From Flavobacteriales bacterium (GTDB lineage Bacteria; Bacteroidota; Bacteroidia; Palsa-965), in assembly GCA_040377305.1 (NCBI GenBank), contig JBEIPA010000013.1, positions 1-64,000 on the forward strand: DNA of 64,000 bases. The letters run 5' to 3'. The notes under the pieces are model-generated. The model worked only from the letters and a program-made list of their open reading frames with translations. It ran no database searches and was not told the origin of the DNA. Positions 9,945 to 30,668 of this stretch are shown here, piece by piece. How positions within the stretch are numbered: the stretch's first letter is position 1; each line of letters opens with the position of its first letter. A program made the position numbers and the translations under genes.

Positions 9945-9996
9945 CGAATATGAAAAAAAGTGTTGGCGCTAGTCGGGAGCAAACGTTTGTAAACGG
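9945..9996 (-). promoter_or_regulatory. Shared 28-bp upstream motif plus -7-like element (copy A)
   Basis: CCGTTTACAAACGTTTGCTCCCGACTAG, 16-nt spacer, CATATTCG, upstream of the FN3/toxin operon. Confidence 0.6.
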
Positions 9997-10158
9997 CTAG
10001 CAACGAAAAAAAATCGGTTGGAGGCGATTGAAAGGGGGTTCAGGGCGAATTTTGGGAAGAACAGTGTGCTCGATCTGACAGATGGGTGACTTATGTGCGC
10101 GTGTGCCCGGAAGATGGAAATGGCGACACCCTCCAAGGGTTTAACCCTTGCAGCGTTG
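9969..10158 (+). repeat. Diverged direct repeat, copy 1 (partner 11425-11590)
   Basis: First about 44 bp identical, then shared blocks ggaggcgatt, gaagaaca.tgtgctcga, gtgtgcccggaaga and the REP palindrome. Confidence 0.85.
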
Positions 10159-10282
10159 GATGAAAGCTCAGGACCACGACACCCTTCAAGGGTTTAACCC
10201 TTGCAGCGTTGAATGACAGCCCAGCACAACGACACCCTCCTCCGAAGGAGTTACTTTGGAGCAAGGGTTAAACCCTTGCAGC
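10124..10282. repeat. Three tandem REP-like units, 53-bp period; the third carries a 20-bp hairpin insert
   Basis: Units start at 10124, 10177 and 10230 with cgacaccct..caagggtt(t/a)aacccttgcagc. Confidence 0.85.
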
Positions 10283-10293
10283 TTTATCTAGCC

Positions 10294-11382
10294 TCACTCC
10301 AACCGCGATTTATGCACTTCGTAACCCGCTTTAAACCGCGGATACATCGTCTTCAGTATAAAATCGATATTCTTTTTCGTTCCGTTGCTCAACTCCGGAT
10401 CGTTGTAGCATTTGTTATAGAGCTCAGCCGATTTTGCATAGTTGTCAAGCATCATGTATCCGAGTGCGAGATTCAATCGGATGTAACCCGCAAGTTCAGG
10501 ATGTATTCTCGCTTTCTTATCCGTGCTTTCTTCGGTGAGCGCTTTCTCCCAAATGACAACCGCTTTTTGTACCAGGTTGCGGCTCGAAGCAAAACTCCAG
10601 TTGTGATTCTTGTCTTTTTTCGTGTGCTCAGTCACAGAATCCATTGCGGCTTTCATGTAGTCCATCGCACTGTCGAGATCGTTGTACTGAAAAGATTTGC
10701 TTTTCGCTGTCGCAAGTTCAAAGTACATTCTGCTTCCCGGATACCCGAAGAGAGCATTCAGTGTATCGGTAAGAAACGCGACGTATTCCTCGTTGCATTT
10801 TTTCCGCGTTACAACAAGCAGATCGCGATTGTTTTTGTTGAAGTCCGCTTCCAGTGCAGCAGCGGATATAAAGGCCGTCGGACTTGCTTTAGGTTTCACC
10901 GTATTCGGAAAATTCATTTGTGTGAATTCACCTTGATTGCGAAGAATATCTGCAACCGTATCACCATTCTTAACAACAATAGCGCGAAGCAAATATTTTG
11001 CTTTTAGCTCATACGAATAGGAAATAACAGCAGCACCATTCGCGCCTTGTGTCTGACCCATCGAGACAGTTTTACTAGCAATGGCATACGGTTCTGTCCT
11101 GATCGTTACCGCAATCGTCGGATTTTGACCGGCTCCTACATGCTTAAATCCCGTAATCACTTTGCTTGTTGCAGTACTCCAATTTGTCTCTTGTTCGTTA
11201 GCTGAAAACTGTTGTTTGTTAGCCTCGCATTCAACAGTAACGCAGGAATAGGTTTGTTGCTCTGCAGGAACAACGTACTTCGGTAGATACGTGCACATCA
11301 TCAGCGACATATCTGTTTTTACTTTTTGTGCGGAAGCTGCAATGGTGAACACTGTGCTCAGCGCGAATAGAACATTTTTCAT
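10294..11382 (-). CDS. Secreted hypothetical protein with a helical, TPR-like C-terminus
   Basis: Signal peptide MKNVLFALSTVFTIAASAQ; 362 aa; RLNLALGYMMLDNYAKS TPR-like segment. Confidence 0.8.
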   Translation of the reverse strand: MKNVLFALSTVFTIAASAQKVKTDMSLMMCTYLPKYVVPAEQQTYSCVTVECEANKQQFSANEQETNWSTATSKVITGFKHVGAGQNPTIAVTIRTEPYAIASKTVSMGQTQGANGAAVISYSYELKAKYLLRAIVVKNGDTVADILRNQGEFTQMNFPNTVKPKASPTAFISAAALEADFNKNNRDLLVVTRKKCNEEYVAFLTDTLNALFGYPGSRMYFELATAKSKSFQYNDLDSAMDYMKAAMDSVTEHTKKDKNHNWSFASSRNLVQKAVVIWEKALTEESTDKKARIHPELAGYIRLNLALGYMMLDNYAKSAELYNKCYNDPELSNGTKKNIDFILKTMYPRFKAGYEVHKSRLE

Positions 11383-11400
11383 GGGTCAACTATTTTTTGC

Positions 11401-11452
11401 CTAATGTAAAAAATAGTTTGCACACTAGTCGGGAGCAAACGTTTGTAAACGG
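11401..11452 (-). promoter_or_regulatory. Shared 28-bp upstream motif plus -7 element (copy B)
   Basis: CCGTTTACAAACGTTTGCTCCCGACTAG, 16-nt spacer, TACATTAG, 18 nt before ATG 11382. Confidence 0.7.
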
Positions 11453-11590
11453 CTAGCAACGAAAAAAATGCATTAGGAGGCGATTTTTTGCGAAGAACAA
11501 TGTGCTCGACTTAGCAGTTGAGTGACTCATGTACGTGTGTGCCCGGAAGACGGAGATAACCCTGCAAGGGTTAAACCCTTGCAGGGTTAT
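11425..11590 (+). repeat. Diverged direct repeat, copy 2, ending in a REP palindrome with 17-bp perfect arms (11556-11590)
   Basis: ATAACCCTGCAAGGGTT-a-AACCCTTGCAGGGTTAT. Confidence 0.85.
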
Positions 11591-13225
11591 GCGCGCATTT
11601 TCATTGATAACTCTGACGTTCAATATAATCAATGGATATGGAATGGTGCTGCTACTAATCTGACAATTGTACCTAATGGCAATGTGGGCAGTGGATCCAT
11701 AATTTCGAGTTACACCGGAGCGGATCTTTGCGAAGATGGTTTTCCGTTTGTAGTTCCATTCTCAGGGAATTCAGACTTCACATTTGACGATCCGGATTTA
11801 CAGTGGATCGCAGATTACAATTATGAAGTTCGCAGAAGGAATAGCGGTTCTGGAAGTTCAGCAGTCGCTTCAGGGAATATCAAAGATTTGTTAGACATAG
11901 AAGCTTTGATGCAAATTGGCGACTATGAAGATGCGCTAATTGATCTTGCTTCCTTTACACCTGCAAATGATATTGAAGAAAATTACAAGTCCGTCTTGCT
12001 TGTATTTGCAACACTTGGAGACGAAGGCGGTCGTACTACTAGTGATACCGAGAAAGGAACCTTGATGTCCGTTGCTGAACAAACAACGCGCACTGGGGGA
12101 CCTGCTGTTACATTGGCGCGTGGTTATCTTGAAGCAAAATATTATTTGCACTATTCCGACCCACGTCCGTTAGAAGATGCAGAAATCAATGGCACGACAA
12201 ACTTGACATCACCATGCTCAACTGAACCAGTTGCAAATACTGAATTAAGTTTTATGGATGATGACGGTAATGATCTCGCAATTGCGGGATGTTACATAAA
12301 TGCAGATGGTAGCTTTATTTTTGATCCACAGGAAATAGCTTATCTCGCCGCAGCAAATCCAAATACCGAGTATCGTATTTTTTCAAAACCAGGTTCACGC
12401 TACACGATTGTCAATTTTGAATATCAGAAGTTGAGTACTTGGCTTTCTGCTTCACCACTTGTAATCGATCTTGCAGGTGTAAGTGTAGTAACTGATACAA
12501 CAGATGAAACTGAACTCGTAGAAATTGAATCCGATACTATGCTGACTCGCGGAGAAGGTATTGTATACGAAGTTGGGTCGGTAGAAACTGTATTCGGAAC
12601 CGATATGCTCATTACAAAATCGGATGGAAGTGGAATAATATGGACACGTACTTGGCATGGACCCGTACGAGAAAGTGAAGATGAAGCGACTTGTCTTTAC
12701 CTTGACGAAAGTCAAAATGTTTATGTTGCTGGACGAGTTTATAATGGGGAAGATTATGATGTTCAGATTCTCAAATATGATACCGATGGAAATCTGATAT
12801 GGACAGCAATGTTTGCAGAAGGAGAGCGACTGGACGATCTCCCTACTGGAATTCGGATGAGTTATGAAGATGGTGTTGAAATTACTGGAACATGCGGCAG
12901 TAACTATCGCTACATCCAGGTATCGGAGTGTTTGCCAATTTCGGAACGACGTGGAAACTTTGATACCACAGCCACCACAGGCACTGTTCAACCTGCGTTC
13001 TATCCAAATCCGAATAATGGGAGTCTGCAAGTTGATCTTCAAGGTCAGTCAGCAGGAACGCTTGAATTGATAAATGTTGCCGGACAAGTGGTGCTCACTC
13101 AATTTGTAAGCGAAAACAGAGAAATTCAGCTTCCGGCAAATGTGGAAAACGGCGTTTATTTGCTTAAATTTACTGGAGAAGGCGAACCTTATTATCAAAA
13201 ATTGATGATCTATCGCAATCAATAA
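11522..13225 (+). pseudogene. Probably 5'-truncated T9SS cargo gene (SBBP-like repeats, type A CTD)
   Basis: First about 23 codons read through the repeat/REP; no signal peptide despite C-terminal FYPNPNNG..GVYLLK..KLMI sorting domain; DESQNVYVAG and KYDTDGNLIW repeats. Confidence 0.6.
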
Positions 13226-13232
13226 AACAAAG

Positions 13233-13264
13233 ATGCCGGATGGAAAATATTTTCCATCCGGCAT
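13233..13264. other. 32-bp perfect palindrome between two co-oriented genes
   Basis: ATGCCGGATGGAAAAT|ATTTTCCATCCGGCAT. Confidence 0.9.
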
Positions 13265-13271
13265 TACTTCA

Positions 13272-14699
13272 ATGAAACAAGTTGTATACATACTATTCCT
13301 CGTTCTGAGTTCCACCTTCTGTCGCGCTCAGAATCAAACCATGTTGTTTGAAAAAATATGGGGAACAGACTCGGCTATGTACACAAGTGTCATCATTTAT
13401 GTAGACCAACAATCGAACGGTGATTACTTCATGATCGGCGGAAAGTCTGTGGGGCATTGGAGTGCCTACGTATATTATGCATGCCGCACCGACTCAACAG
13501 GTGTGCTGCTTTGGGAGAAAACATGGGGTGTTCCCGATTCTCGATGCGCATTTTCGAAGGTGATCAAATCTGCTACCGGAACATACATTGCGGTAGGTAC
13601 TTCGGGTCCAATACTTGGGGGTATATCTGATATAATTGTCACTAACATAGATGCAAACGGTGACATCATTTTTAATCGTTATTATAACTTTTCGTATGAG
13701 GATTGTGGATACGATATTATCAGTACTTATGATGGTGGATATATAATTGCGGGAGTGAAAGGCACGTCACCTGGCAATCGGCATCCTGGGTTCATTAAAA
13801 TAGATGCCGATGGAAATGAGATATGGCGTCGGACTCAAAGTTCCCTGATCGATTATGCGCCATTTTACCTAAGCCAAACCACTGATAGTGGATTTATTGT
13901 CTTAGGAACAACAGGAGGATATAACAATTGCTTTTACGCCCAATATGATTCGCTTGGAATGATGCAATGGATACGATATCCTTTTGGATTTGGAGATACT
14001 ATTGAAAACACACCTGGTACTATTCGCGCCAATCATGATGGAACGTTTGATATAATTTACAGTGCATATTATCCGTTGCAACCTGAGCCGATAACAGCAA
14101 TACTGTTTCGGTACAATGAGGATGGAGACACACTGTGGCGTAAAAATTATTACGAATCAGTGAACTCATTTTTTGTGCGGGCAGAAGATACTGTAATGTG
14201 TTGCATGATGTGGGGGCAATCATATGGAGAAATGCATGAGAATTATGAGTTTGTACAAAAGACGAATGCATCAGGCTCATCAAGTCACTATCTCTATAGC
14301 TATTTTCTAACAAATGACGGCGGATATATTGGATGCGGAAGAACCAGTCCTTCCAATGGAACTTATAAATTTTATGTGATCAAATTTTCACCTGACGGAA
14401 GACATCAAGCAGTTCCGTTTTTATCGCAAATAGCTATCGGACCTAATCCGTCATTTGATGGTAACATCAACGTGAGTTTCGACGTGCAGACCGACGAGAA
14501 TATACAGGTGCGCGTCATAGGGATAGATGGACGCTTGGTGTATTACGATGAAATATTTTGCCCGGCGAATTCACATACGGATCTTCCAATTGATATTTTA
14601 GGAACTACTACTACAGCTGGAGTTTATATTCTTGAAGTAAAAACATCTACAGAGTTCCGAAGGGAAAAGTTGGTTGTCGGTCGGACCAACTCAAATTAA
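13272..14699 (+). CDS. T9SS type A sorting-domain protein with beta-propeller-like repeats
   Basis: Signal peptide MKQVVYILFLVLSSTFCRAQ; TYDGGYIIAG / KIDADGNEIW repeats; IGPNPS..GVYILEV..KLVV CTD. Confidence 0.85.
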   Translation: MKQVVYILFLVLSSTFCRAQNQTMLFEKIWGTDSAMYTSVIIYVDQQSNGDYFMIGGKSVGHWSAYVYYACRTDSTGVLLWEKTWGVPDSRCAFSKVIKSATGTYIAVGTSGPILGGISDIIVTNIDANGDIIFNRYYNFSYEDCGYDIISTYDGGYIIAGVKGTSPGNRHPGFIKIDADGNEIWRRTQSSLIDYAPFYLSQTTDSGFIVLGTTGGYNNCFYAQYDSLGMMQWIRYPFGFGDTIENTPGTIRANHDGTFDIIYSAYYPLQPEPITAILFRYNEDGDTLWRKNYYESVNSFFVRAEDTVMCCMMWGQSYGEMHENYEFVQKTNASGSSSHYLYSYFLTNDGGYIGCGRTSPSNGTYKFYVIKFSPDGRHQAVPFLSQIAIGPNPSFDGNINVSFDVQTDENIQVRVIGIDGRLVYYDEIFCPANSHTDLPIDILGTTTTAGVYILEVKTSTEFRREKLVVGRTNSN

Positions 14700-14707
14700 A
14701 TTTGGCC

Positions 14708-14738
14708 CACCCTCCTAGGGTTAAACCCTTGCAGCGTT
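14708..14738. repeat. REP-like unit (same family as 10124-10282 and 11556)
   Basis: caccctcctagggttaaacccttgcagcgtt. Confidence 0.8.
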
Positions 14739-14745
14739 AAACAAC

Positions 14746-14777
14746 AAAAAAAGGAGCCCGCCTCAGCAAACTCCTTG
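14746..14777 (-). terminator. Intrinsic terminator of the LRR gene
   Basis: Minus strand AAGGAGTTTGC-tgag-GCGGGCTCCTT followed by a T-run. Confidence 0.7.
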
Positions 14778-14813
14778 AAACATATTATTGACATCCTCAG
14801 CGGAGCCGAAGGT

Positions 14814-15746
14814 CTATCCAAACTCCACAATCTTCACCGTCGGCAAACTCAACTGCAGAGCAGCATTGTGTTCCTTCAGCCAGCTCGATGATTCCAGCTC
14901 TTCGAGGTTTGTTAATCCGTGCAGAGGACCCAGATCGGTAACGCCCGTGTAAGCAATGTCGAGGTTTTCCATCTTCGTGAAATTTGCAATCACAGAAAGG
15001 TCTTTCACGTTCGGACAATGAAACAGCGCGAGGTATTTCAGATTCGTTAATCCTGCAAGCGGAGTAAGATCGGCAACCTGTGTGCGGTGTACGCTTATTC
15101 TTTCGAGTTGCGTACAGTTTTCCAAACCTTCAAAGCTGTTTAGTGGTGTATCGGCTGCATCAAACTCTTTCAATGCTTTGCAGTTCGCCAATGCTTTTAC
15201 GGACGTAACGTTCGACTCAACCATTCTGACTTCTTCGAGATTCGTGAGGTTCGACAACGCATCAATATTGTCGATGAGTTTGAAATCTCTTCCACCTAAA
15301 CGCAATACTTTCAAAGAAGTCATTCCCGAAAGCGGACTCAGATCTTTAATCGGATTGTTGGTAATGTCGAGCACTTCCAGCTTCATGTTTTTTATCGGAG
15401 ACAAATCCTGCACGCGGCATTCCCCAATTTCAAGTCGCTTGAGAAAAGTAAGAGCCGCAACCGGAGTAAGATCTTTGATTTTTGCATTGTCACTTACATC
15501 CAGAGACTTCAGCTCGCGAAAATTGTTTTCCAGTTCTTCGTCGTCCTGATCAACGCTTATCGAATCGGAATTGTTTTCCAATGCTTCTTTCCATTCCTGA
15601 GAGAGCGTGCCAAGCCAGGCGCGAACAGTGAGTTGCTGATCGGTTACGCGTAACGCGCTTTGTTTCGGTGCTGCTGCTGCCGAAGACGATGAATCAGAAT
15701 CATCATCACCGGCAACCATTGATTTGAGTTTGTCGAAAAAGCCCAT
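14814..15746 (-). CDS. Leucine-rich repeat protein (internalin-like repeats), no signal peptide
   Basis: About 22-aa repeats such as LEVLDITNNPIKDLSPL; MGFFDKLK N-terminus; TACATTAG -7 element upstream. Confidence 0.9.
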   Translation of the reverse strand: MGFFDKLKSMVAGDDDSDSSSSAAAAPKQSALRVTDQQLTVRAWLGTLSQEWKEALENNSDSISVDQDDEELENNFRELKSLDVSDNAKIKDLTPVAALTFLKRLEIGECRVQDLSPIKNMKLEVLDITNNPIKDLSPLSGMTSLKVLRLGGRDFKLIDNIDALSNLTNLEEVRMVESNVTSVKALANCKALKEFDAADTPLNSFEGLENCTQLERISVHRTQVADLTPLAGLTNLKYLALFHCPNVKDLSVIANFTKMENLDIAYTGVTDLGPLHGLTNLEELESSSWLKEHNAALQLSLPTVKIVEFG

Positions 15747-15844
15747 GGGTTTGTGTGTTTTGGTGAATGGCTAATGTATTGAAATACACACAGCATTGCC
15801 GTAAATTCTATCGGAAAGAATCTACCGATTATCGGATTAATTGT

Positions 15845-16762
15845 TTATGAAAACAGGGGCTGCACCACTCTCAGCTGCGTTCCGCACGACTCACACTTGA
15901 TCATATTCTTCCAGTCTTTGGGCAACTCGTTTTCGTAACCGCAATCGTGACAATTCACCACTTTTTTTAATCTGTTTTCGCAACGGCAATGCTCGCAAAA
16001 ACAAACCAGTGCACCTTTCGGAACCGACAATTCTTTTTTGCAGTCTTCGCACACTACATCCTGTCTCAAGGGTTCTGCCATCTCTACATATTCCTGTTTC
16101 AGCTTGTGTTGTTCGAGAAAAGCATCCGCATCTTTTTCTTCGAGATAAGGAATCCACACCTGTGCAATCTGCGACAATTTCATCTTGAGCTGAAAATGTT
16201 CCGGCATCACTTCATGCATGATCATGTACTTCGGATTATCGTACACAATTCTGAATCCCTGCGCCTGATAATCTAAAAATGCCGCAATCATTTTGCTGAA
16301 GGTGGCGTAGTTCACATACGTCTTGTCGCCGCGCTGGTAATACTCCAGTGCTTTGGTTGCGTCTGTATATGCATCCATCTTATCGGTGTTCGTCACCTCC
16401 ATGGTATCTGCTGCCATGTCGGCCGCACTCTGTATAAACAGTTTGTATTTTTCTCCTTTCGGAACACTTGGCGGTAAGTACTGCGGATAATGCGTGTAGT
16501 AGTAATCCCAGAAGTCATACGTCTCCTGCCAGTACGCCTCTTTGTTTTTCTCCGCCAAATATTTTTTCGTTTTGGTTTCGAACTGCACTTTGCGCTGTAT
16601 GTATTGTGCGGTGTGATTGAGGGAATCCTTCCACACATCCAATCCGGCAGCATAATCTACATCGATCATGTGTCCGCAGTAATCACATACCACATACGGA
16701 TTTTTATACGGACTTACTTTCGGAGCACCACATTGGTGACAATCAAATTTCTTGATGCGCAT
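15845..16762 (-). CDS. Multi zinc-ribbon protein
   Basis: CHQCG, CDYCG at the N-terminus; CEDC, CEHC, CHDCG, CESCG at the C-terminus. Confidence 0.8.
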   Translation of the reverse strand: MRIKKFDCHQCGAPKVSPYKNPYVVCDYCGHMIDVDYAAGLDVWKDSLNHTAQYIQRKVQFETKTKKYLAEKNKEAYWQETYDFWDYYYTHYPQYLPPSVPKGEKYKLFIQSAADMAADTMEVTNTDKMDAYTDATKALEYYQRGDKTYVNYATFSKMIAAFLDYQAQGFRIVYDNPKYMIMHEVMPEHFQLKMKLSQIAQVWIPYLEEKDADAFLEQHKLKQEYVEMAEPLRQDVVCEDCKKELSVPKGALVCFCEHCRCENRLKKVVNCHDCGYENELPKDWKNMIKCESCGTQLRVVQPLFS

Positions 16763-16804
16763 GGTGCAAGATAAAGAATCACGCGAATACAAACCCTAAT
16801 CCTT

Positions 16805-18145
16805 TCAGGGCTGTGCCGCTACAACAAAGCGCGCTGTGCTCACCATAGGTCCGTTGATCGTGATCTGGTAGATACCCGGCGGATAAGCGGAAACATTCAC
16901 TTCAGTTGTAGCATCAGCTACCTGAATTTGTTCGACGATTTGACCAAGTGCATTGGAAATAGTCACCTCTACTCGCGTTAATGGCCACGGATTCGCAATG
17001 ACTATTTGTTGCGACGCCGGGTTAGGATAGACGAGTGCTGCATGTTCAACTTCACTTTCAGTTATAGCTGTAACCGGGGAAATCGCAAATCCAAGTTCCC
17101 AGTAATAATTGAGAGAACCGGGTGGTGGCGGATCAATATCTTTTCCGGTATACCACATCATCCAGTTTCCATTGTCGTAGAGGACGGAAGGGAATGAAGC
17201 AGTGTTTGCATCCCAACTGCCCGTGGCGCCTACATTAAGAACTTGTGCGGGCAAACGGGTCCAGTTAATTCCATCTGTTGATGTGGCATAACCAATTTCC
17301 TGTCCGTAACTGCCTACACTATTTCCACCGTACCACATGCGATACACGTTGCCTGATTTAATCACATGCGGATCCTGAACGTAAACAGAGTCCCACCCTG
17401 TTCCGGTTGTAAAAATCGGATTGGAGGCGTCCTTGATCCAATTGATTCCGTCTGTTGATGTGGCGTAACCGATGTTTGCTTTGCCATCAGTACCGCTATT
17501 GTCACCAATTGCATCATAGCCACAATACCACATCTTGTAAACGTTTCCATCTTTAATCACAGAAGGACCTTCCAGAAATCCGTTGTCCCACTCCGTAGAA
17601 TTACCAACAGAAAGAACCGGTGATGTATGTTTGATCCACGTAATTCCATCTGCAGAATACGCATATCCTATATCATACCGATAACTGTTGAAGTAATGAC
17701 CGGCGTACCACATCTTATAGCGTTCTGATGGTGGAGCTGCACTATCAATGATTACCGACGCGGTTTCAATTCCTAAAGAATCCCAGCTTCCGGTGTACGA
17801 TACATCCATCACCGGATTGCCGGCATACTTGGACCACATAACACCATCTGCCGAAGTTGCATAACAGATTCGCGCGCGTAAAGCGGTATCGGCAGGGTAA
17901 TTGATCCCACCGCACGTGTACCACATTTTGTACACTGCATTTTCTTTCAGTACCCAACAGTCGCTAATGGCAATAAGGTCATTCGGAAGATTGGCCACAA
18001 CGGTGTCTCTCCGCAATACAGGATTTGCAGCATCTTTTGTCCAGGTCGTTTGGGCATTCACAGCATGGAATACGGTCAACGAAAAAGCAAAAATGAGAAT
18101 AGACAAATTGCGTGTGAGTGTTCTTAAAAGAAAGCGCGTATGCAT
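16805..18145 (-). CDS. Five-bladed beta-propeller glycosidase-like protein with T9SS CTD
   Basis: Repeats of WD..PSV..YKMWY..IGYATSTDGINW.K..NP; VYPNPA..GIY CTD. Confidence 0.85.
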   Translation of the reverse strand: MHTRFLLRTLTRNLSILIFAFSLTVFHAVNAQTTWTKDAANPVLRRDTVVANLPNDLIAISDCWVLKENAVYKMWYTCGGINYPADTALRARICYATSADGVMWSKYAGNPVMDVSYTGSWDSLGIETASVIIDSAAPPSERYKMWYAGHYFNSYRYDIGYAYSADGITWIKHTSPVLSVGNSTEWDNGFLEGPSVIKDGNVYKMWYCGYDAIGDNSGTDGKANIGYATSTDGINWIKDASNPIFTTGTGWDSVYVQDPHVIKSGNVYRMWYGGNSVGSYGQEIGYATSTDGINWTRLPAQVLNVGATGSWDANTASFPSVLYDNGNWMMWYTGKDIDPPPPGSLNYYWELGFAISPVTAITESEVEHAALVYPNPASQQIVIANPWPLTRVEVTISNALGQIVEQIQVADATTEVNVSAYPPGIYQITINGPMVSTARFVVAAQP

Positions 18146-18195
18146 GAAATAAATGTAGGGATTTTGATGACAGATGCGAATGTGAATCCGAAATC

Positions 18196-21924: not shown

Positions 21925-22053
21925 TCACCCGCCACGTGAATAGCGATCTGCTTCATCCAGCATCCAAAGCACAAGAACGAAAATGCCGAACAGCGCGAGG
22001 ACCGTTCCGATCACAACTGAAATTCCAACGACTATAGCCTTCTTCTTGTTCAT
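21925..22053 (-). CDS. Small single-TM protein, 42 aa (not in ORF track)
   Basis: MNKKKAIVVGISVVIGTVLALFGIFVLVLWMLDEADRYSRGG; TGATG coupling to the upstream small ORF. Confidence 0.55.
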   Translation of the reverse strand: MNKKKAIVVGISVVIGTVLALFGIFVLVLWMLDEADRYSRGG

Positions 22054-22196: not shown

Positions 22197-22382
22197 GATG
22201 CGAAGATGAGTGGAATCAGAATGAATGCAGGAGTTGAATGAAAGAGTGTCGTGCTTTCCTGTGCAAGTGCAGGATTGAGACAGCAACACGGCTTCGGTTG
22301 AACGCTTGAGTTTCAGGACACCACGTTCCCGTTTCATGGGATCGCTTCGTCGTGCCTCCTCGCGATGACGGTCACGTGTTGC

Positions 22383-23012
22383 TTATTTCGCGCCTTTCAA
22401 ACGCTTCATCCGTCCTAACTGATAGCCGTTGAACTTCCAGACTTTCACTTCGGGAATTTCTTCGGTGCCTTTGCCTGAAATTTTATCTTCCTTCGCGGGA
22501 TAAGCGAAAAGTTCCATCACCAGCTCATCTCCTTCGATCCAATACGAAATCTGAATCATGCTACCCATAACGGAAAACAAACTCGTGACTTTATTTCCGG
22601 TGGCGTACATGTCGATGACGATACCGTTATTTTCATCAATGGTCCAATGACCTTTCGCAGTGTCTATCGGAACGAGTGTGTAATGACGCCGATCAATTGC
22701 CGCAGTGTCCGATTTCGGATAATACGTAATCACCCAATCGTAACGACCTGAATCGGCCGGGAAAACGTCGAGACCGAATTGAATGGTGCTGACTACAGAA
22801 TCTCCTTTATAAATATTCAGATCACCTTTCCAGTATCCGATGTAGGAATCAGGAAAGTTGTTCTGCGCAGACACCGAAGTATACAAAACAACTGTGAAAA
22901 ATAATAGGATGATGCGATGATACAATGAGTCGAAGTAATTGTCAAACCGAATAGACTTGAGACACTGCGAAGTAACTTGATTCATAAAAAGCGTCGTACC
23001 TAGGAATGGCAA
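22383..23012 (-). CDS. Secreted hypothetical protein (lipocalin-like barrel); start uncertain
   Basis: Hydrophobic signal region RIILLFFTVVLYTSVSAQ is internal to the ORF; FPDSYIGYWKGDL, IDENNGIVID. Confidence 0.7.
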   Translation of the reverse strand: MPFLGTTLFMNQVTSQCLKSIRFDNYFDSLYHRIILLFFTVVLYTSVSAQNNFPDSYIGYWKGDLNIYKGDSVVSTIQFGLDVFPADSGRYDWVITYYPKSDTAAIDRRHYTLVPIDTAKGHWTIDENNGIVIDMYATGNKVTSLFSVMGSMIQISYWIEGDELVMELFAYPAKEDKISGKGTEEIPEVKVWKFNGYQLGRMKRLKGAK

Positions 23013-24125
23013 TTATTTCGCAATAACAACTCGCTTCGTTTCTACTTCACGCTCTGTTCTAATCACAAATGAATAGGTTCCATTCGTAAATCCGGAAAGA
23101 TCGACTTGCATGGTGGTAGAACCAGTCTCAAAATATTCGGGAGCAAGCACCATTCTTCCCTGCAGGTCGTACACTTCAACACTGGTCTTTGTGTTGTAAT
23201 CAACCCGATTCACCTGGAAAATACCATTGGTAGATGGAGATGGAAACACAGAATATTTCACCGCCTCCTCTCTATCGATCGGATCAATTCCATTCGGCAC
23301 TAAGAAGTACGGCATGTACGTGTTGATCATTTGCGTTACGCGAACAACTTGTCCCTGAGTGAAGAAACACATACCGGCATCTTCTGTATAGTCCATGTAA
23401 TTCTGCCACATAATTCCCGGTGCAGGGGAACACGCATCGGTAATAACAGTCCCGGGTGCGTACGCAGTAAAATTCTCGTCTGCCTGATTGGGAGTATCTG
23501 CAATATAATCTGAGCCACTACATGAGCTTCCATCATCACCCCAAATGTGATACAATCCGAAGTAATGACCAAGCTCATGCGTCGCAGTGCGACCCTTATC
23601 GTAACCATTCAACATAATGGTTTCATTACGGCCGACTACGGACCATAGAATGTCGAGTCCGCGGTCAGGGCTCGGTGTTGCAGATGGAAATTCGCTATAC
23701 GCAAGAACACCACTCGGAATATCCCACACCCAAATGTTCAGATAAACGGAATCCGACCAGGGATCAAGTCCACCCAATGCGAACGAATGCGGATTGAAAG
23801 CAGGAGGACTTGCATTTGTTACAGCTCTTCGTTCAATTCCGATTGTTGGATTTCCCTGAGGATCTACAGATGCAAATTCAAATCCAATGTCCATATTACC
23901 AATGAGCGGTTGCCACACGGCCGGTACATTCACCAAATCAGGATTCGCTGCCTGATAATCTTCATTGAGCACATCGAGTTGATGCTGCAACACTGAATCC
24001 GGAAGATTTTGTTGTGCGTTTTCATAAAGCACGTGAAATATCACGGGAATCTGAACCGACTGAGCATTGAGCGCACACGCTGAAATGAACAGCGTAGTTC
24101 CGAGAATTACATTTTTCATGTTCAT
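23013..24125 (-). CDS. M43 (pappalysin-like) zinc metalloprotease with T9SS CTD
   Basis: IPVIFHV, GRTATHELGHYFGLYHIWG, QNYMDY, FTQGQ, VFPSPS CTD. Confidence 0.92.
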   Translation of the reverse strand: MNMKNVILGTTLFISACALNAQSVQIPVIFHVLYENAQQNLPDSVLQHQLDVLNEDYQAANPDLVNVPAVWQPLIGNMDIGFEFASVDPQGNPTIGIERRAVTNASPPAFNPHSFALGGLDPWSDSVYLNIWVWDIPSGVLAYSEFPSATPSPDRGLDILWSVVGRNETIMLNGYDKGRTATHELGHYFGLYHIWGDDGSSCSGSDYIADTPNQADENFTAYAPGTVITDACSPAPGIMWQNYMDYTEDAGMCFFTQGQVVRVTQMINTYMPYFLVPNGIDPIDREEAVKYSVFPSPSTNGIFQVNRVDYNTKTSVEVYDLQGRMVLAPEYFETGSTTMQVDLSGFTNGTYSFVIRTEREVETKRVVIAK

Positions 24126-24128
24126 GGG

Positions 24129-25235
24129 TTACTGAGCAATTACAATCCGTTTCGTTTCCGTAGCGTATGTGCTTCTTGTTACAAGTGAGTACACGCCGTT
24201 TACACACGATGATAAATCAATTTGAAGGGAAGTAACACCAGCTGCAAAATTTACCGGCGATGTGACGAGACGACCTTGCGGATCATAAACTTCGACTGAA
24301 GCGTTTGTTGTTGCATCAGCACGTGAGATCGTAAAAAGTCCATTCGAAGACGGAGAAGGAAAAACGGTGTAGCCCGATTTAATCTGATCTTCACGAATTC
24401 CGTTCGGAGTGAAAAAGCCCTGACGCATATTGTTCATATACCAGGTCATTCTTCCAACCTGATCTGCAGTGAAAAATACCATCGCGGTATCATCAACGTA
24501 ACTCATGAAATTCATCCACATTATTCCGGGAGCAGCAGGCTGACAACCATCCGTTAAAATTGTTCCAACAGGATATGTTCCGTAAACGGTATTCGAAGAA
24601 TAACCTGGAGTGTCTGCACAGCTGTCGATGTCAAGACACATTGAATTTGGTCCTATGTGAGTTAATCCCAGCCAGTGTCCGAATTCATGTGTACCTACAC
24701 GACCGGCATTGAATGGAGCTTGTGCCGGAGCGCCACGACCGACATAACGATAGTTGAGAACGATTCCGTCTGTTGCATCGGGCCCGCCGGGGAATTGCGA
24801 GTAAGCAGTAAGTGCAGGTCCTAAATCACACACCCAAATGTTGAGGTATGAAGTGTCCGGCCATGCATCAAGTCCACCGGAGAGAGCGAACTTAACATTG
24901 TCGTTGGTACTCCACGTTATTGTCGGGCTGAACTGACGCTCAATTCCCGTTGTTGGATTTCCATTCGGATCAACCGTTGCAAGCATGAACGTAATGGGCA
25001 TGCTTCCAATGATCGGTGTCCACGCTGCCGGAACTTTCCACAAGTCGGCATTTAGCGCGTTCAGATCTTCATTGAGCACATCGAGTTGCTCCTGCAAAAT
25101 AGAATCGTGAATATTCTCAGTTGCGTTTTGATAAACCACATGAAAAATAACCGGAATGGTTACTGCCTGAGCGGAAGCAGATTTTCCTGCCGAGAATAAT
25201 AGTGCAAATCCAATGGTGCGTAGTGCGTGTTTCAT
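24129..25235 (-). CDS. M43 zinc metalloprotease with T9SS CTD (tandem paralogue)
   Basis: IPVIFHVV, THEFGHWLGLTH, MNFMSY, VFPSPS CTD. Confidence 0.92.
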   Translation of the reverse strand: MKHALRTIGFALLFSAGKSASAQAVTIPVIFHVVYQNATENIHDSILQEQLDVLNEDLNALNADLWKVPAAWTPIIGSMPITFMLATVDPNGNPTTGIERQFSPTITWSTNDNVKFALSGGLDAWPDTSYLNIWVCDLGPALTAYSQFPGGPDATDGIVLNYRYVGRGAPAQAPFNAGRVGTHEFGHWLGLTHIGPNSMCLDIDSCADTPGYSSNTVYGTYPVGTILTDGCQPAAPGIMWMNFMSYVDDTAMVFFTADQVGRMTWYMNNMRQGFFTPNGIREDQIKSGYTVFPSPSSNGLFTISRADATTNASVEVYDPQGRLVTSPVNFAAGVTSLQIDLSSCVNGVYSLVTRSTYATETKRIVIAQ

Positions 25236-25351
25236 AACTTATTTATAGATTACTAAAGTTATGGAAATTCAACGTACCCACCCGCGACTTTGCGTAACTG
25301 TGTACACCTGTGTAATAAGCGTGCAAAACTGCGTAAGCAACGGCATACACA

Positions 25352-25389
25352 ATTCGAAGATTTGAAAATTTGAAGATTCGAAGACTGAA
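25352..25389 (+). repeat. 8-bp tandem array ATT(T/C)GAAG, left arm of an inverted pair
   Basis: attcgaagatttgaaaatttgaagattcgaagactgaa. Confidence 0.85.
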
Positions 25390-25400
25390 TCAGTCCAGCC

Positions 25401-25796
25401 TCATCTATTGGCAAACTTCTGACCACGCCAACCACTTTTCTGAACGTAGTCACTCAGGTTTTGAAGTTCGCCCGATATGGTTTCAGACAAACCACTCAGG
25501 TGCTTGAGATCAGCTTCCGTTAGATATTTGAAATCAAATGCCCGGTACAGTTGAGATCTGCTTTCACCACAAGATCCTTTGGAAATAGATAGATGTTGAA
25601 CAAATTCATTAGTACCATTGCGTTCAAATCCCTCAGCAATATTATCCATCACTGAACCGGACGAAGCCAGAATTTGATCCTTGAATTTGAAATCTCGCTG
25701 TAGTGGAGTTCGATAGACTGCTGCGAAAACTTCCGCCGCATAAACGCGCGATTTTTGCCAAACCGGCAATTGCTCAAAACGTGTGTAAGTAGCTAT
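25401..25796 (-). CDS. Four-helix-bundle (23S rRNA intervening-sequence-type) protein
   Basis: RFEQLPVWQKSR, DFKFKDQI, SVMDNIAEGFER, LSISKGSCGESRSQLYRA; family-like N-terminus begins at an ATA codon (25796). Confidence 0.88.
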   Translation of the reverse strand: MATYTRFEQLPVWQKSRVYAAEVFAAVYRTPLQRDFKFKDQILASSGSVMDNIAEGFERNGTNEFVQHLSISKGSCGESRSQLYRAFDFKYLTEADLKHLSGLSETISGELQNLSDYVQKSGWRGQKFANR

Positions 25797-25855
25797 ACAT
25801 ATATGTTTATAGTTAAATATATGGCGAATATATACATAATTACTTTACACCATGA

Positions 25856-25885
25856 TCAAATCTTCGAATCTTCAAATCTTCAAAT
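25856..25885 (-). repeat. 8-bp tandem array, right (inverted) arm
   Basis: tcaaatcttcgaatcttcaaatcttcaaat, the reverse complement of the left-arm unit. Confidence 0.85.
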
Positions 25886-25889
25886 ATTT

Positions 25890-28800
25890 TTATTGTTTCG
25901 ATCTACCGCAAATCGCCTTTTTCACTTGCCGGTATTCTCCGCTCCGCAATTCGAAGAAATACATTCCACCCGCCAATCCCAGTGCTGCTGGATCAATGGT
26001 AACAGAATAATTTCCCGGCATAACATAACTCGATGTTGGCACAGGAGTCGCAACCAGATTTCCGGTGATGTCAAAAATCCGAATCTCCACCGGTCCACGT
26101 TCTGCAATGGAATATTCAATCGTCACCTGATCGGCAAACGGATTCGGATACACGTTGAAATTATTCACAGGCGGCGGAAGCTCTTTGAACACGGCTCGGA
26201 AATATTCTGCAGAGTCAATATCGATTCGCAAAACAGGATCGTAGTATTTCGTTGTGTCTCCCGGCAATGCATATTCCCAATACAAAAATTCGTAACCGGG
26301 ATTAGCAATTGCAGTCATCGTGATCGGATTTCCTGTGAAGTAAACCCCAATCCACGGCACCGAATCGAGTGTGATTGTATTCAGCTTCACAGTGCCCGCT
26401 GCAGCAGGAAACATATCGAAGGCGCAATACTTCTGTTGGGGCAAATTGAACTGCGACTGAATGTGCTGACGGCAATATGTTGGACGTGCAAACATGATAT
26501 TCGCCATGTCAATTACATTTTGCGTCCACTGTGCAGTATCCATTTGCCATTGCAACCAGGACGGAGTAAACAAGGGCGGACCGCCAACTCCCCACATATC
26601 GAAATGACGATCCATCTCCGGCAACATTTCGAGATACGTTGCAACGATGTAATCGTAGGTATTGTACGGATAGAATGTCGTGTTCAGTAAATCGGCATAA
26701 CGATTCACGAAGTAAATACGAAACGAATCATTCTGCAGCAAGGAGCGAATCATGTACGAATGCGGATTCATTACCGGCGGATTGATCGCGATGTTCAGCA
26801 TGTTGATCGTATCCGAATTCAAAGCGAGATCGAGATCCCACAACACATATCTCCACGGTGCATCGTAATTGCGCGGCTGCCAGAACTTGATGTTGTTGGT
26901 ATACGTTCCGATCCAGTCTGTATTCGCGTAGAATGTTTCGGTGATGAAGTAATCGCACATATTTTCGAAATCCCACATCGTTGCGGCTGAGTCGATATTC
27001 GCCTGAACAGTCATGTCGTTTCCGCCTATGAAGGTGTAGGTGCGAATGAAATCTGCATTATCACCTTCGATAATGTCGCCGTTGAACTGAAGGAAATTCG
27101 TACTGTCGTCATCGCATTCCGAATTATTGGCGATGTAATGTTTATCCTGTTTCTCGCGCATTTCATACACGCCCCAGTATGCTCCGTTGATGAATACAAC
27201 ACACGCGAAACCGTCCATCATATCAACATCACAAACCGGTTGAATGGTTTTGTGAATCATCCGATCGCGCATGTGACAATTGTTGTAGTCCGTTCCGGTG
27301 TTGCGTAAATTGAAGCCGCGATATTCCGTCGCCGGTTTATCAGGAAAGAGCTGATAGTTGATCGGCTTTGCTCCGTAATCGTCATCGCAATCAATGAAGA
27401 AACCTTTCTGGGCAAATACTTTCGAAAAATTTCCCTGAATGCGAATGGACGCTGGCGTTTCAAATTTCAGCGCGTGTGTTGTGTCGAAGTAGGAAACATT
27501 GCACGGACGAATCCAGCCTTGCCAGAAGTTCGCATCGAAGAACGGAATGTCACTGATGGCGGTGTCGGGAGTATTGCCCAACATGTAAATTCCGTAATCC
27601 TGATCGAACAGATTGTACGGATCAGTTACAATTGAAACTACTGGTAACGCTACGTTTTCATTGAGGAAATAGGATGACGCCGCAACTGGTCCCGGCAGAT
27701 AATTTGTGTCCGACGGAATCAATTTTGCGCGCAATACCAATGTAGAATTGATTGCAACACTTCCGGCATAAGTTGGCGACCACGATTGCGGATCTTGTCC
27801 GTTCAGTGTGTAGTGAATCGTTCCGGGTGTTGTTGCACTGATCGTTGTTGTCTGACTTCCGCTGTAGAATCCTGACGTCAACGCAATAGTCGGTGCACTT
27901 CCGTATCCTGAATAGCACGAAGCAGAAAAATTCGTCGTATCAGGAGTTGCTTGTGTAAACAAACACCAGTTCGCCGATCCATCCGGTTGACGCCCGCGTG
28001 AGTGATTCGGTTGCATGCCTCCAATAGTAATTGAATCTACAACTCCACCTGCCGCATTGTGAAGAACGAGCTGTTGACCTGTACTATTCAGTGAATAACT
28101 GGTATGCAGATTAATATCGGCCGGAAACGGGATGTAGGTAACGGATGTGTCCCCTACACCAAGGAGAAGCGCGGGATACATCGTCATATCATCCATTCCG
28201 GATTGTGCATTGTGCGTTTCCACCGAGAATGTATTCATTCCCTGAATCTTGATCGTGTCAAGCACAGAGGATGGAACCATAAACAACGCCGACATTCCAC
28301 CGGTTTGGTATTGCAGCGCTTCGTGATCTGCATAAGCGTATTCGTTGTATGCGGGAGTTACATGTGCAGCACCAACGCCGTAGCGACAAATTTCTTTTCC
28401 GTTCAGGTATGCAACAAATGCATCATCGAAGTCAACAAGAAATGCCGCGGAAACAATGTTGCTGGTATCAGCAATATTGAACGACATACGTTGGTAAAGA
28501 GAAATGGTCGGAGCAATTACGGTTGTATCGTCACCATCTCCGTATCCAATCGGACCCACGGCAGGAATCCATCCCGCATCGTTGAATGACGGAGCAGCCC
28601 AGTTTGCCGGTGGCTGAAAGAATCCCGGAAAGTATCTCCAGTTAAAACCCCAGTAAACCGGAATTTCCCAATGATCGAAATAGTCACTTCGGTTTTTTCC
28701 GGAGAAGAAAACGGTGAGATGATCGCCAGGCTGAATGTAAATCGTTGGGAATGTCCAGGTGCGCGAATCAGTTCCTTCATTACAGGTAATGGTGTACCCT

Positions 28801-28970
28801 TCCATGTTCACCGCAGTAGAACCGGCGTTGTAAAATTCCACCCAGTCTTTCGCGTCTCCATCTTCGTCAACAAACGCATCATTTCCTGCAGAGGAAATTT
28901 CGTTGATGAAGATTTGTGCCGGTAGCCATTGAAAGAGTAGGAGAGAAGAGGCGAGTAAAAGTCTTTTCAT
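25890..28970 (-). CDS. CotH kinase-family protein with lamin-tail domain, Fn3-associated domain and T9SS CTD
   Basis: INEI..DWVEFYN, IHYTLNG, IRIQGNFS, INGAYWGVYEMREK, NTDW..NNIKFW, WRYVLWDLD, VYPNPF. Confidence 0.92.
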   Translation of the reverse strand: MKRLLLASSLLLFQWLPAQIFINEISSAGNDAFVDEDGDAKDWVEFYNAGSTAVNMEGYTITCNEGTDSRTWTFPTIYIQPGDHLTVFFSGKNRSDYFDHWEIPVYWGFNWRYFPGFFQPPANWAAPSFNDAGWIPAVGPIGYGDGDDTTVIAPTISLYQRMSFNIADTSNIVSAAFLVDFDDAFVAYLNGKEICRYGVGAAHVTPAYNEYAYADHEALQYQTGGMSALFMVPSSVLDTIKIQGMNTFSVETHNAQSGMDDMTMYPALLLGVGDTSVTYIPFPADINLHTSYSLNSTGQQLVLHNAAGGVVDSITIGGMQPNHSRGRQPDGSANWCLFTQATPDTTNFSASCYSGYGSAPTIALTSGFYSGSQTTTISATTPGTIHYTLNGQDPQSWSPTYAGSVAINSTLVLRAKLIPSDTNYLPGPVAASSYFLNENVALPVVSIVTDPYNLFDQDYGIYMLGNTPDTAISDIPFFDANFWQGWIRPCNVSYFDTTHALKFETPASIRIQGNFSKVFAQKGFFIDCDDDYGAKPINYQLFPDKPATEYRGFNLRNTGTDYNNCHMRDRMIHKTIQPVCDVDMMDGFACVVFINGAYWGVYEMREKQDKHYIANNSECDDDSTNFLQFNGDIIEGDNADFIRTYTFIGGNDMTVQANIDSAATMWDFENMCDYFITETFYANTDWIGTYTNNIKFWQPRNYDAPWRYVLWDLDLALNSDTINMLNIAINPPVMNPHSYMIRSLLQNDSFRIYFVNRYADLLNTTFYPYNTYDYIVATYLEMLPEMDRHFDMWGVGGPPLFTPSWLQWQMDTAQWTQNVIDMANIMFARPTYCRQHIQSQFNLPQQKYCAFDMFPAAAGTVKLNTITLDSVPWIGVYFTGNPITMTAIANPGYEFLYWEYALPGDTTKYYDPVLRIDIDSAEYFRAVFKELPPPVNNFNVYPNPFADQVTIEYSIAERGPVEIRIFDITGNLVATPVPTSSYVMPGNYSVTIDPAALGLAGGMYFFELRSGEYRQVKKAICGRSKQ

Positions 28971-29015
28971 TCGGGGAAATAGGAGTTTGCAATACTAAAA
29001 TACGCGTTTCGGCTT

Positions 29016-29113
29016 ATGATTGGATGATGGGATTATAGAATGATAGGATTCAGCGGGTTGTGAATTTAACAACGAGGGCATCAACTAATCGGAAATCGAT
29101 AATCAACTAATCG
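29016..29113. repeat. Degenerate short tandem arrays in a divergent intergenic region
   Basis: ATGATTGG ATGATGGG ATTATAGA ATGATAGG (8-mers), then an approximately 7-mer taatc array at 29080-29113. Confidence 0.55.
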
Positions 29114-29138
29114 ATTTGCTATCTTAGACTTAGCAAAC

Positions 29139-29558
29139 ATGAAAAGGTTTATTGGTGTTTTAGCATTTTGGCTGCTGTTTTTCGCTGGAAAGGCGGATAC
29201 GATCGGCGCGTACACGGTTATGCACAAGGGCAAAGTGATTACATCCGCAACTGAATTTGACACCATCCAGATCAAACTCAGAAAGAAGGAATTTACTGCA
29301 GCAGATACTTTGTTGGTCGATTACTGGAGTTGCGGATCGCGGAGTGCGCTTCGTCACCAGGTACGTGTTAAAGACAGCACGACTGATTCAATTGTACTTA
29401 GTGCCGGTGTATTCCATACACAATACTATTTGCTTCCCCTGAACGAATTACTTTTGTATGAGCAAGCTCACCCGGGTACAGTATTTGATGGATCGTTCAT
29501 CACCAAAGAAAGAGAATACAAGCATAGAATTTACTTTCGCTTAGAATTCACAGAATAA
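29139..29558 (+). CDS. Small secreted hypothetical protein
   Basis: Signal peptide ending AGKA-DT; TATCTTAG -7 element just upstream. Confidence 0.75.
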   Translation: MKRFIGVLAFWLLFFAGKADTIGAYTVMHKGKVITSATEFDTIQIKLRKKEFTAADTLLVDYWSCGSRSALRHQVRVKDSTTDSIVLSAGVFHTQYYLLPLNELLLYEQAHPGTVFDGSFITKEREYKHRIYFRLEFTE

Positions 29559-29560
29559 TT

Positions 29561-29980
29561 ATGTCACTGAAAAAATTACTCTTCGCATTTTCCGTTGTCT
29601 TCTGCACGTTTCTGCACGCCGACTCCATTGACGTCTACAAAGTCTCTTTTCGCGGACAGGAAATAGCAACGTACACCGGTCCGCAAACTATTCACATCAT
29701 TCTCCAGGCCGATAGTTTAACTGCGTTCGACACGCTTAAAGTAAATGTGCAGCGTGATACGCCTTGTGCAAACTGCAAGGATTATTCACTGATCGTGTTC
29801 GGTAACAAAGGTCCAATGCTTGTCGACTCCACACAAAACGGAGCGAGCTTTTTTATTCCGCTTAAACCATTGGTTGATTACCGCAAACAAAACAACGTGA
29901 AGCAATACCACGGTTACTACACCGAGTATCGAGATGGTGGCAGAGCACGGGTGGTGACGTTTAAGATTACGATGGAATAG
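29561..29980 (+). CDS. Small secreted hypothetical protein, likely paralogue of the previous gene
   Basis: Same length (139 aa); ADSIDVYKV vs ADTIGAYTV, TAFDTLKV vs TAADTLLV. Confidence 0.75.
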   Translation: MSLKKLLFAFSVVFCTFLHADSIDVYKVSFRGQEIATYTGPQTIHIILQADSLTAFDTLKVNVQRDTPCANCKDYSLIVFGNKGPMLVDSTQNGASFFIPLKPLVDYRKQNNVKQYHGYYTEYRDGGRARVVTFKITME

Positions 29981-30010
29981 CGCGCGCGTAAACCTTCGAA
30001 GGTTCGGACA

Positions 30011-30043
30011 CAAAAAAAGGAGTGCCGGTTTTGCCAGCATTCC
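30011..30043 (-). terminator. Intrinsic terminator
   Basis: Minus strand GGAATGCTGG-caaaa-CCGGCACTCC followed by a T-run. Confidence 0.65.
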
Positions 30044-30065
30044 CAAGTCAATTGGAGTGGAAATA

Positions 30066-30368
30066 TTATCCTCGCGAATTATAACCTTCTCCGTCTGTAA
30101 CAATATAGAGAACAAGAGCAGCTGCTGCAATAGCGCCACCCACAATCCATTTCACAACCGGGTTTTTCTTTTTCTTCTTTTTACGACGTTTCTTCTTTGC
30201 TTCTTCCGATGCATCGTTGGTGAAGTTGTCTGTTTCTTCAACGGCGTTTGGGGTTGCTGCGGTTTGGGTCTGTTTAGTTTGAATTGTGTTTACCGGTACG
30301 GCCTCAGTGGCATACGATAGCACATTAAAACTAAACACTACAGCGAGTGCAAGAATGAGTTTTCTCAT
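30066..30368 (-). CDS. Small protein: signal peptide, polybasic patch, C-terminal hydrophobic helix
   Basis: MRKLILALAVVFSFNVLSYA..AKKKRRKKKKKKNPVVKWIVGGAIAAAALVLYIV. Confidence 0.75.
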   Translation of the reverse strand: MRKLILALAVVFSFNVLSYATEAVPVNTIQTKQTQTAATPNAVEETDNFTNDASEEAKKKRRKKKKKKNPVVKWIVGGAIAAAALVLYIVTDGEGYNSRG

Positions 30369-30555
30369 GTTGTTAGGTATCGGTTTTTTTTCGAAAATAA
30401 TGCGTTTATACCCAGATAGATACAAAAGGGGTGCTGACAAGTGTCGAATTTAACAGTTGATGACACCTAAACTGGCTTGTTTTAACAAAATGGGTAAGAA
30501 TCGACCAGTTTTCGACACGATTGAAGGTAGGTCGCGATCATACGCGCGCATGTGT

Positions 30556-30608
30556 AACCTTGAAGCGCTAAACCCTTGCTCCGAAGGAGCTCCTTCGGAG
30601 CAGGGTTA
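30556..30608. repeat. REP-like unit with nested perfect palindrome
   Basis: aaacccttGC-TCCGAAGGAGCTCCTTCGGA-GCagggtt. Confidence 0.8.
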
Positions 30609-30616
30609 AAATTTAT

Positions 30617-30668
30617 CCGTTTACAAACGTTTGCTCCCGACTAGTGTGAAACCCGCGCATTACATTAG
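30617..30668 (+). promoter_or_regulatory. Shared 28-bp upstream motif plus -7 element (copy C)
   Basis: CCGTTTACAAACGTTTGCTCCCGACTAG, 16-nt spacer, TACATTAG, 8 nt before ATG 30677. Confidence 0.7.

Follow-up and report, generated by a model that had tools for sequence, protein, structure and literature searches.

The element described here is an array of 10-bp units that occurs four times in a 64,000-nucleotide (nt) stretch of DNA from a member of the Flavobacteriales (positions 1 to 64,000 of contig JBEIPA010000013.1, assembly GCA_040377305.1; hereafter the window), whose 5.18-Mb genome, referred to as G000, belongs to the Bacteroidia. Judged by its sequence and placement, the array is a real, conserved element of operator type, and its copies are on balance best explained as activator sites of a competence-like regulon in the genus, built on an older ssb module. 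An earlier reading made from the letters of the window (the sequence-only reading) had pointed to a 28-bp word in three exact copies, at 9969-9996 (-), 11425-11452 (-), and 30617-30644 (+), each followed by 16 nt and an 8-mer (CATATTCG for copy 1, TACATTAG for copies 2 and 3). All of this was reproduced, and 100 shuffles of the window contained no match to the word, even at 3 mismatches. The 19-bp match that it had reported at 49436-49454 is likewise real and proved to be more than partial, consisting of two minus-strand units 17 nt before a perfect TAnnTTTG (49411-49418). The 28-bp word itself is sound, but its boundaries were misplaced: a 30-bp run of three 10-bp units begins 3 bases earlier. 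The arrays, the boxes downstream of them, and the repeats near them are as follows.

9970..9999, minus strand: three-unit array copy 1, TAGCCGTTTA CAAACGTTTG CTCCCGACTA
9945..9952, minus strand: -7-like box CATATTCG, 17 nt past the last unit of copy 1
11426..11455, minus strand: three-unit array copy 2
11401..11408, minus strand: -7-like box TACATTAG, 17 nt past the last unit of copy 2
30614..30643, plus strand: three-unit array copy 3, TATCCGTTTA CAAACGTTTG CTCCCGACTA
30661..30668, plus strand: -7-like box TACATTAG, 17 nt past the last unit of copy 3
49436..49455, minus strand: two-unit array copy 4, TAAACGTTTG TAAACGGCTA
49411..49418, minus strand: perfect -7 box TAACTTTG, 17 nt past the last unit of copy 4
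9947..10121, strand not assigned: duplicated flank, with its counterpart at 11403-11557 (blocks of 84% and 82% identity)
11557..11589: perfect hairpin resembling a repetitive extragenic palindrome (REP), beside copy 2, with kin at 10128-10158, 10181-10211, 10256-10286, 14709-14739, and 30556-30611; fold z -7.2

Scanning G000 returned 34 matches at up to 6 mismatches; refined by iteration, a matrix resolved the motif into 10-bp units, one per helical turn, each of them a CG-centred and roughly self-complementary 10-mer. The first unit is usually TATCCGTTTA or TAGCCGTTTA, inner units resemble CAAACGTTTA, and the last unit often ends in CGACTA, CGGCTA, or CGGATA, a sequence of its own that gives the array a direction. 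The number of units ranges from two (radC) through three (the window) to about eight elsewhere. A two-unit matrix was built from 57 pairs of units at 40 loci whose titles suggest that they lie outside the genus; these loci had been found with a pattern derived from G000, and the matrix is therefore not fully independent of it. With this matrix, 50 loci in G000 scored at least 19 bits, against a single control 20-mer in the reversed genome, and a 13-mer gave 51 matches, against none for the reversed pattern. At 26 loci of G000 the last unit is followed by 16 to 17 nt and then a -7-like box. The register is exact: of the 97 tails in which a last unit could be recognised, 39 place a -7-like box, scored with up to one mismatch, at offset 16 or 17, whereas every other offset from 10 to 23 has one in only 0 to 2 tails. 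Phasing is also seen in sets of orthologous promoters. At comEC and at yraN alike, 13 of the 17 box-like matches at 14 promoters sit at offsets 7, 17, or 27, while comEA has its box at offset 26 in all 10 promoters and ssb at offset 48 in 48 of 64. Genes were called with our own simple open reading frame (ORF) finder, so that some start positions and assignments to the inside of coding sequences are rough. The sequence-only reading had proposed that the word is a regulator's site defining a regulon, to be checked by a genome-wide motif scan and an upstream comparison of orthologues. Both supported it: the copies are not scattered but mostly intergenic, lying before gene starts and phase-locked to the -7 box, and the array is kept at orthologous promoters.

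TAnnTTTG at -7 and TTTG near -33 are reported as the primary promoter elements of the phylum, and the box downstream of the array is of this ordinary Bacteroidota -7 type (PMC7366714). Scans for sigma-70 promoters are unsuited to this phylum. The gap between the -33 and -7 elements is 19 to 21 nt. Because of its fixed phasing to the -7 box, the last unit of the array sits over the -33 region, as had been suggested for the 28-bp word; the coincidence is nevertheless weak as evidence, since a TTG ends 19 to 21 nt upstream in only 60 of 673 ordinary -7 boxes of G000. What the array does share with class II activator sites is a fixed register to a -10-type box, at 16 to 17 nt or whole turns further, together with overlap of the upstream promoter element. 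The sequence-only reading had left the choice between activator and repressor open; rigid, one-sided phasing favours an activator. We consider it very probable that the array is bound by a protein and quite likely that it serves in transcription activation, its last unit in the -33 region placing the protein next to RNA polymerase. G000 encodes two RpoD-type sigma factors that are 75% identical (C15:38133-38996, L523, and C58:16955-17827, L524; C numbers denote contigs and L numbers loci).

Within the genus, upstream regions were scored at a cut-off of 11 bits with the two-unit matrix from loci outside the genus, and the counts include G000 and an unpublished genome, G012. An array was present upstream of comEC in 14 of 22 regions (13/21 without G012; 3 of 25 were too short), of comEA in 10 of 22 (9/21), of yraN in 14 of 24 (13/23), and of dprA in 10 of 26 (9/25). 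The comEA set comprises 23 of 26 loci, three that matched only in mid-gene having been left out, and one of its regions was too short. At the same cut-off, random G000 genes gave 29 hits in 1488, and shuffles gave 0 to 1 per 110 to 130. At least one of comEC, comEA, and yraN carries an array in 20 of 27 genomes (19/26). In line with these counts, an unseeded Gibbs search of 44 regions from 16 genomes, with G012 left out, recovered the same word in 29 of the 44, at a score of 423 versus 130 to 144 for three shuffles. ComEC, ComEA, DprA, and YraN are described as acting in transformation (PMC13663708, PMC8459023). The array displays a feature of competence regulons, a shared site upstream of unlinked genes for DNA uptake and processing (comEC, comEA, and yraN in the genus, radC and tail-less ssb in G000). 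In a relative, two-unit sites were also seen before a gene whose start looks like Cas9 by eye (L285; the fragment has no Pfam match) and upstream of a ThsB TIR-like gene (L278).

Outside the genus, the most widely kept partner of the array is ssb. An exact 30-base pattern occurs in 71 stretches in GTDB, 69 of them titled Bacteroidota, with Lewinella cohaerens, Aequorivita viscosa, and a Cyclobacterium among the names; judged from the translations, about 26 stand ahead of an ssb, while integrases, YhcG, and restriction-type genes follow others. The ssb in question lacks the acidic tail. In a tree of 44 ssb proteins, an array accompanies 33 of 38 tail-less and 0 of 6 tailed members, and in a metagenome set of 80 loci chosen by similarity to one tail-less ssb, of which 76 were long enough, it is present at 74, with a divergent zinc-finger gene at 59. 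The tailed ssb of G000 has no array. An extra SSB is reported to be competence-specific in Bacillus and Streptococcus (PMC3128108). Most of 120 class members have 0 to 5 matches to the 13-mer, which is near background, and two have 10 to 11, compared with the 51 of G000. A 20-mer also matches 17 stretches of viral DNA, for most of which the simple ORF finder called no clear gene downstream, and one viral contig (L429) has a long multi-unit array with no downstream gene by the same finder.

The targets in G000, assigned to families with Pfam and NCBIfam, include genes for DNA uptake and single-stranded DNA (comEC, yraN, radC, and two loci of tail-less ssb) and for DNA processing (UvrD-like and PIF1-like helicases, xseA, and a 3'-5' exonuclease); on the divergent side of two sites lie recJ and polA. 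Mobile functions are represented by 6 of the 10 Y1 transposases (one of them weak), two genes below the cut-off that resemble REP-associated tyrosine transposases (RAYTs), and two integrases. Three GxxExxY genes, three four-helix-bundle genes, DUF559, NYN, and HigB genes, an AAA ATPase gene, several unknown island genes, and the genes for the exported proteins of the window are further targets. At C19:48662-56685, an integron-like integrase gene has an array promoter, and behind it come about ten small, unrelated genes of like orientation, in a layout like that of a cassette or immunity array.

A candidate for the regulator is encoded divergently from ssb. The gene, present in 72 of 121 class genomes, specifies a protein of roughly 120 residues in which four cysteines are conserved and one long helix is basic. 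When 30 class loci were picked by this zinc-finger gene, 15 had a tail-less ssb nearby, 13 of those with an array, and the array was mostly absent where ssb was absent. Where the gene lies away from ssb, it has an upstream array of its own in 9 of 23 genus genomes, and in two genomes a site stands just before its start codon. Five genomes picked from 49 without a match to the protein have just one ssb apiece, which is tailed and lacks an array, the absence of the protein in this case resting on one protein query. Profiling the presence of the gene against that of the motif was uninformative, since 26 of the 27 genus genomes have the gene and most class members show the 13-mer at close to background level. 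The protein was modelled with a predicted local distance difference test score (pLDDT) of 85, and its C-terminal part folded alone with a pLDDT of 45. Comparisons with the sequences of solved structures and with PHROGs gave nothing useful, and in Pfam and NCBIfam it had no match to ComK, for which a genome-wide search was not made. The zinc-finger protein is a reasonable candidate for the regulator, not an identification, and we put its being the array binder at slightly under an even chance. WYL and S24 genes were considered as self-regulated binders and set aside because none has an array upstream, although the single WYL gene of G000 may act at a distance. That gene (C7:90767-94574, L011) is divergent from a gene for a 504-amino-acid (aa) protein, with a short dyad of its own in between. 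None of the sites was seen beside a response-regulator gene.

Regulons that join comEC, comEA, dprA, radC, and ssb through a dedicated upstream site are known from CRP-S and Sxy (TfoX) in the Pasteurellaceae and Vibrio and from ComX and its cin-box in streptococci; the array differs from these sites, and we saw no evidence here for CRP or an alternative sigma factor. OmpR and CpxR sites have a 10-bp period, and tandem sites of the OmpR/PhoB family occur at promoters lacking a -35 element, but the units of the array are small palindromes and not simple direct repeats. The regulon of ComK in Bacillus subtilis resembles the one described here in its competence genes and extra ssb and in its A/T-rich dyads spaced by whole turns (PMC3536758, PMC3128108). 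K-boxes are, however, described as pairs of AAAA-N5-TTTT with gaps of 8, 18, or 31 bp (PMC3536758), whereas the array consists of contiguous CG-centred 10-mers. PafBC, a WYL activator acting at the RecA-NDp motif, likewise has its site in fixed register with a -10-type box (PMC6789036), in contrast to which the one WYL gene of G000 lacks an array. The SOS response of Bacteroidetes, controlled by S24-family LexA-like repressors, belongs to the same phylum and has ssb and radC among its reported targets, but its boxes are given as GGA-N5-TCC and CTAA-N5-TTAG and are centred on dinB/umuDC and recA (PMC8565304). The array was rejected as an SOS box: it matches neither of these sequences, the 24 recA regions scored in the genus lack it, and dinB (C56:73912) is not among the 87 array loci of G000. 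Instead, dinB lies downstream of two CTAA-N5-TTAG boxes (C56:72966 and 73082), near an S24-family gene, which indicates that a separate SOS system is in place and fits the published one (PMC8565304).

Taken together, these results lead us to lean towards a competence or DNA-uptake state as the condition in which the array promoters of the genus would be induced. In the scheme that we propose, an activator, possibly the zinc-finger protein encoded beside ssb, would bind the 10-bp sites, one per helical turn, and switch on genes for DNA uptake and single-stranded DNA from -7 boxes 16 to 17 nt or whole turns further downstream. The regulon would have grown to about 50 promoters in G000, partly by copying of an array-plus-REP unit, and transposases, integrases, small nucleases, defence-island genes, and the secreted-protein genes of the window may thereby have been hooked to the same signal. 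A broader proposal, that the array marks a master competence switch of Bacteroidota in which a zinc-finger/winged-helix protein on 10-bp-phased arrays activates DNA uptake, a store of single-stranded DNA, secreted interbacterial toxins, and mobile elements, with REP-associated transposases spreading the promoter, seems to us doubtful. To our knowledge, natural transformation has been shown for only a few Bacteroidota. A literature search found no competence regulator or box described for the phylum and no published account of the array, although most subscription journals lay outside its coverage. The array supplies a defined site with its promoter geometry, a list of genes, and a candidate protein for the control of DNA uptake in Bacteroidota, and documents how a regulon grew within a single genus from a few promoters to about 50, in part next to REP repeats. 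Should the secreted-protein genes of the window encode toxins that are controlled in the same way, the association of competence with the killing of neighbours would extend to a new phylum.

Several results weigh against a competence-like regulon driven by the zinc-finger protein. No array was found upstream of recA in 24 genus regions (23 without G012), and in G000 there is no site at recA, comM, comF, or the comEA-like gene. Most of the 50 loci of G000 precede mobile, defence, or unknown genes or REP hairpins. The genomes of one genus are not independent of each other, and outside it the array was found at comEC in 2 of 30 class-level regions and at dprA in 1 of 30 phylum-level regions, G000 included in both; the link to comEC thus fades outside the genus, and the phylum-wide core is ssb and not the uptake genes. 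Even within the genus, the dprA site falls within the divergent gene's coding sequence, with no phased -7 box visible. Its codons are fixed (TTT in 12/12 and AAC in 12/12, with 21 of 26 regions aligned) while flanking codons vary, suggesting constraint at the DNA level, though related genomes inflate these counts. As for the zinc-finger protein, 26 of 27 genus genomes encode it, including those with weak or no sites; in G000 and its nearest relative the gene has no upstream array, and the single copy of G000 lies 17 kb from the nearest ssb. The C-terminal part of its model aligns mainly to domains that are winged-helix by title, but at Z 3.5 to 5.1 over 51 to 95 residues, below the noise level of the tool, and Foldseek with the model returned nothing at E 0.001.

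The main rival keeps the same activator sites and assigns them to an SOS-independent response to DNA damage or single-stranded DNA, like that of PafBC or DriD, with the competence genes of the genus as secondary recruits. It would account for ssb as the most widely kept target, for the helicases, xseA, the 3'-5' exonuclease, and radC, with recJ and polA as divergent neighbours, for the frequent transposases and integrases, and for a comEC link mostly limited to the genus. We think it rather unlikely all the same: recA is without a site in all 24 regions, dinB is not among the sites and a separate SOS system is in place (PMC8565304), the single WYL gene has no array, and the ssb that bears the array is the tail-less extra copy and not the housekeeping one. 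That the arrays are instead repressor operators, covering the -33 region until released by a signal, would agree with the overlap between the last unit and the polymerase-binding region, with palindromic three-unit forms between divergent genes, some of these forms lacking a box at 16 to 17 nt, and with the sites just before the zinc-finger start codon in two genomes. Repressor sites usually slide, however, whereas here the spacing is exact to the base and recurs at whole turns, and the promoter-proximal unit gives the array a direction, all of which makes repression improbable.

A last alternative takes the array for a mobile-repeat end or a recombination site (of REP/RAYT or integron-like kind), passively copied and non-regulatory at most positions. 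Some copying has taken place. A REP hairpin lies within 130 nt of 18 of the 87 loci found at 15 bits, compared with 7 of 600 random intergenic positions; the array precedes 9 of 14 REP left ends; and at C8:24096 a long array faces a RAYT-like gene, a further array points outward and runs into a REP, and tandem REPs lie downstream, from which we infer that an array-plus-REP unit beside a REP-associated transposase gene seeded some promoters. The copies in the window tell a similar story. The sequence-only reading had argued that a conserved spacing with divergent spacers speaks for function and not for passive duplication, an argument that does not suffice on the window alone, where spacers and flanks are not independent: the copies at 9969 and 11425 are 84% identical along 83 nt and 82% identical along another 72 nt. 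The window copies are thus in part recent duplicates, and some copies of the array move together with the REP hairpin. Pairwise, the window spacers agree at 5, 8, and 10 of 16 positions, and that of the 9969 copy agrees with the spacer of a copy on contig C10 at 14 of 16. The arrays before Y1 transposase genes and the integron-like integrase, and the high copy number of G000 relative to most class members, point in the same direction. Yet a motif that is identical among copies with drifted spacers points to selection on the motif, and the array is kept upstream of unlinked orthologues (comEC, comEA, yraN, and ssb) with different flanks and fixed phasing. Its unit number varies in 10-bp steps, and as a single strand it has no stable fold (z -0.8 to -1.4 for the three window copies, versus -7.2 for the adjacent REP); the window also has no Rfam match at the gathering score. 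No copies stand between the small genes downstream of the integrase, and a role as an invertible promoter or cassette recombination site was rejected on the same ground and because copies lie upstream of genes. We therefore regard passive copying as a very improbable account of the array as a whole; it probably explains the spread of some copies, not the nature of the motif. Tandem units of 110 bp (array, spacer, and REP hairpin) were also seen at contig ends of G000 (C26:1-110, C32:30-200, and C55:61520-61657).

The genes downstream of the four window copies are as follows.

7650..9848, minus strand: target of copy 1, fn3-domain protein of exported type, its gene probably heading an operon
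5048..7648, minus strand: gene for an 866-aa protein, 2 nt downstream of the fn3 gene, no Pfam match
4605..5051, minus strand: ORF of 148 aa that overlaps the stop codon of the 866-aa gene, resembling an immunity gene in its position only
10294..11382, minus strand: target of copy 2, 362-aa exported-type protein, no family match above cut-off
30677..34072, plus strand: target of copy 3, 1131-aa protein with DUF5122, a weak SprB repeat, and a type IX secretion system sorting domain
34069..35769, plus strand: 566-aa ORF overlapping the stop of the 1131-aa gene, probably co-transcribed, no family match
48941..49381, minus strand: target of copy 4, GxxExxY (PD-(D/E)XK-like) protein

Orthologues of the fn3 gene at L039 and L042 (84% and 77% identity) and of the 1131-aa gene at L025 (63%) carry the array, as do those of a 953-aa gene on C10 in relatives, all of these loci having been picked by the motif; among the collected loci, the copy 2 target has no orthologue. 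The array is also present at two GxxExxY paralogues on C10 and at homologues in relatives. The C-terminal part of the 866-aa protein is similar to small protein clusters without names and, weakly, to a TNT-domain cluster (score 0.91, 159 shared features). It is possible that the protein is a polymorphic toxin, the TNT likeness serving as a lead only, and that its gene and the small overlapping ORF form a toxin-immunity locus. Directly downstream of these two genes lie genes for a cytosine methylase, a helix-turn-helix protein, Vsr, and a probable restriction nuclease (1439-4573). Elsewhere in the window, two 91-nt tandem repeats and an inverted copy (48805-48851 and 49497-49685) bracket the GxxExxY gene and its array; a four-helix-bundle gene (25401-25769) is flanked by inverted 44-nt repeats (25349-25392 and 25853-25896), like a small mobile unit; and three tandem paralogues at 41649-46859 combine MORN-like repeats with a TonB C-terminal domain.

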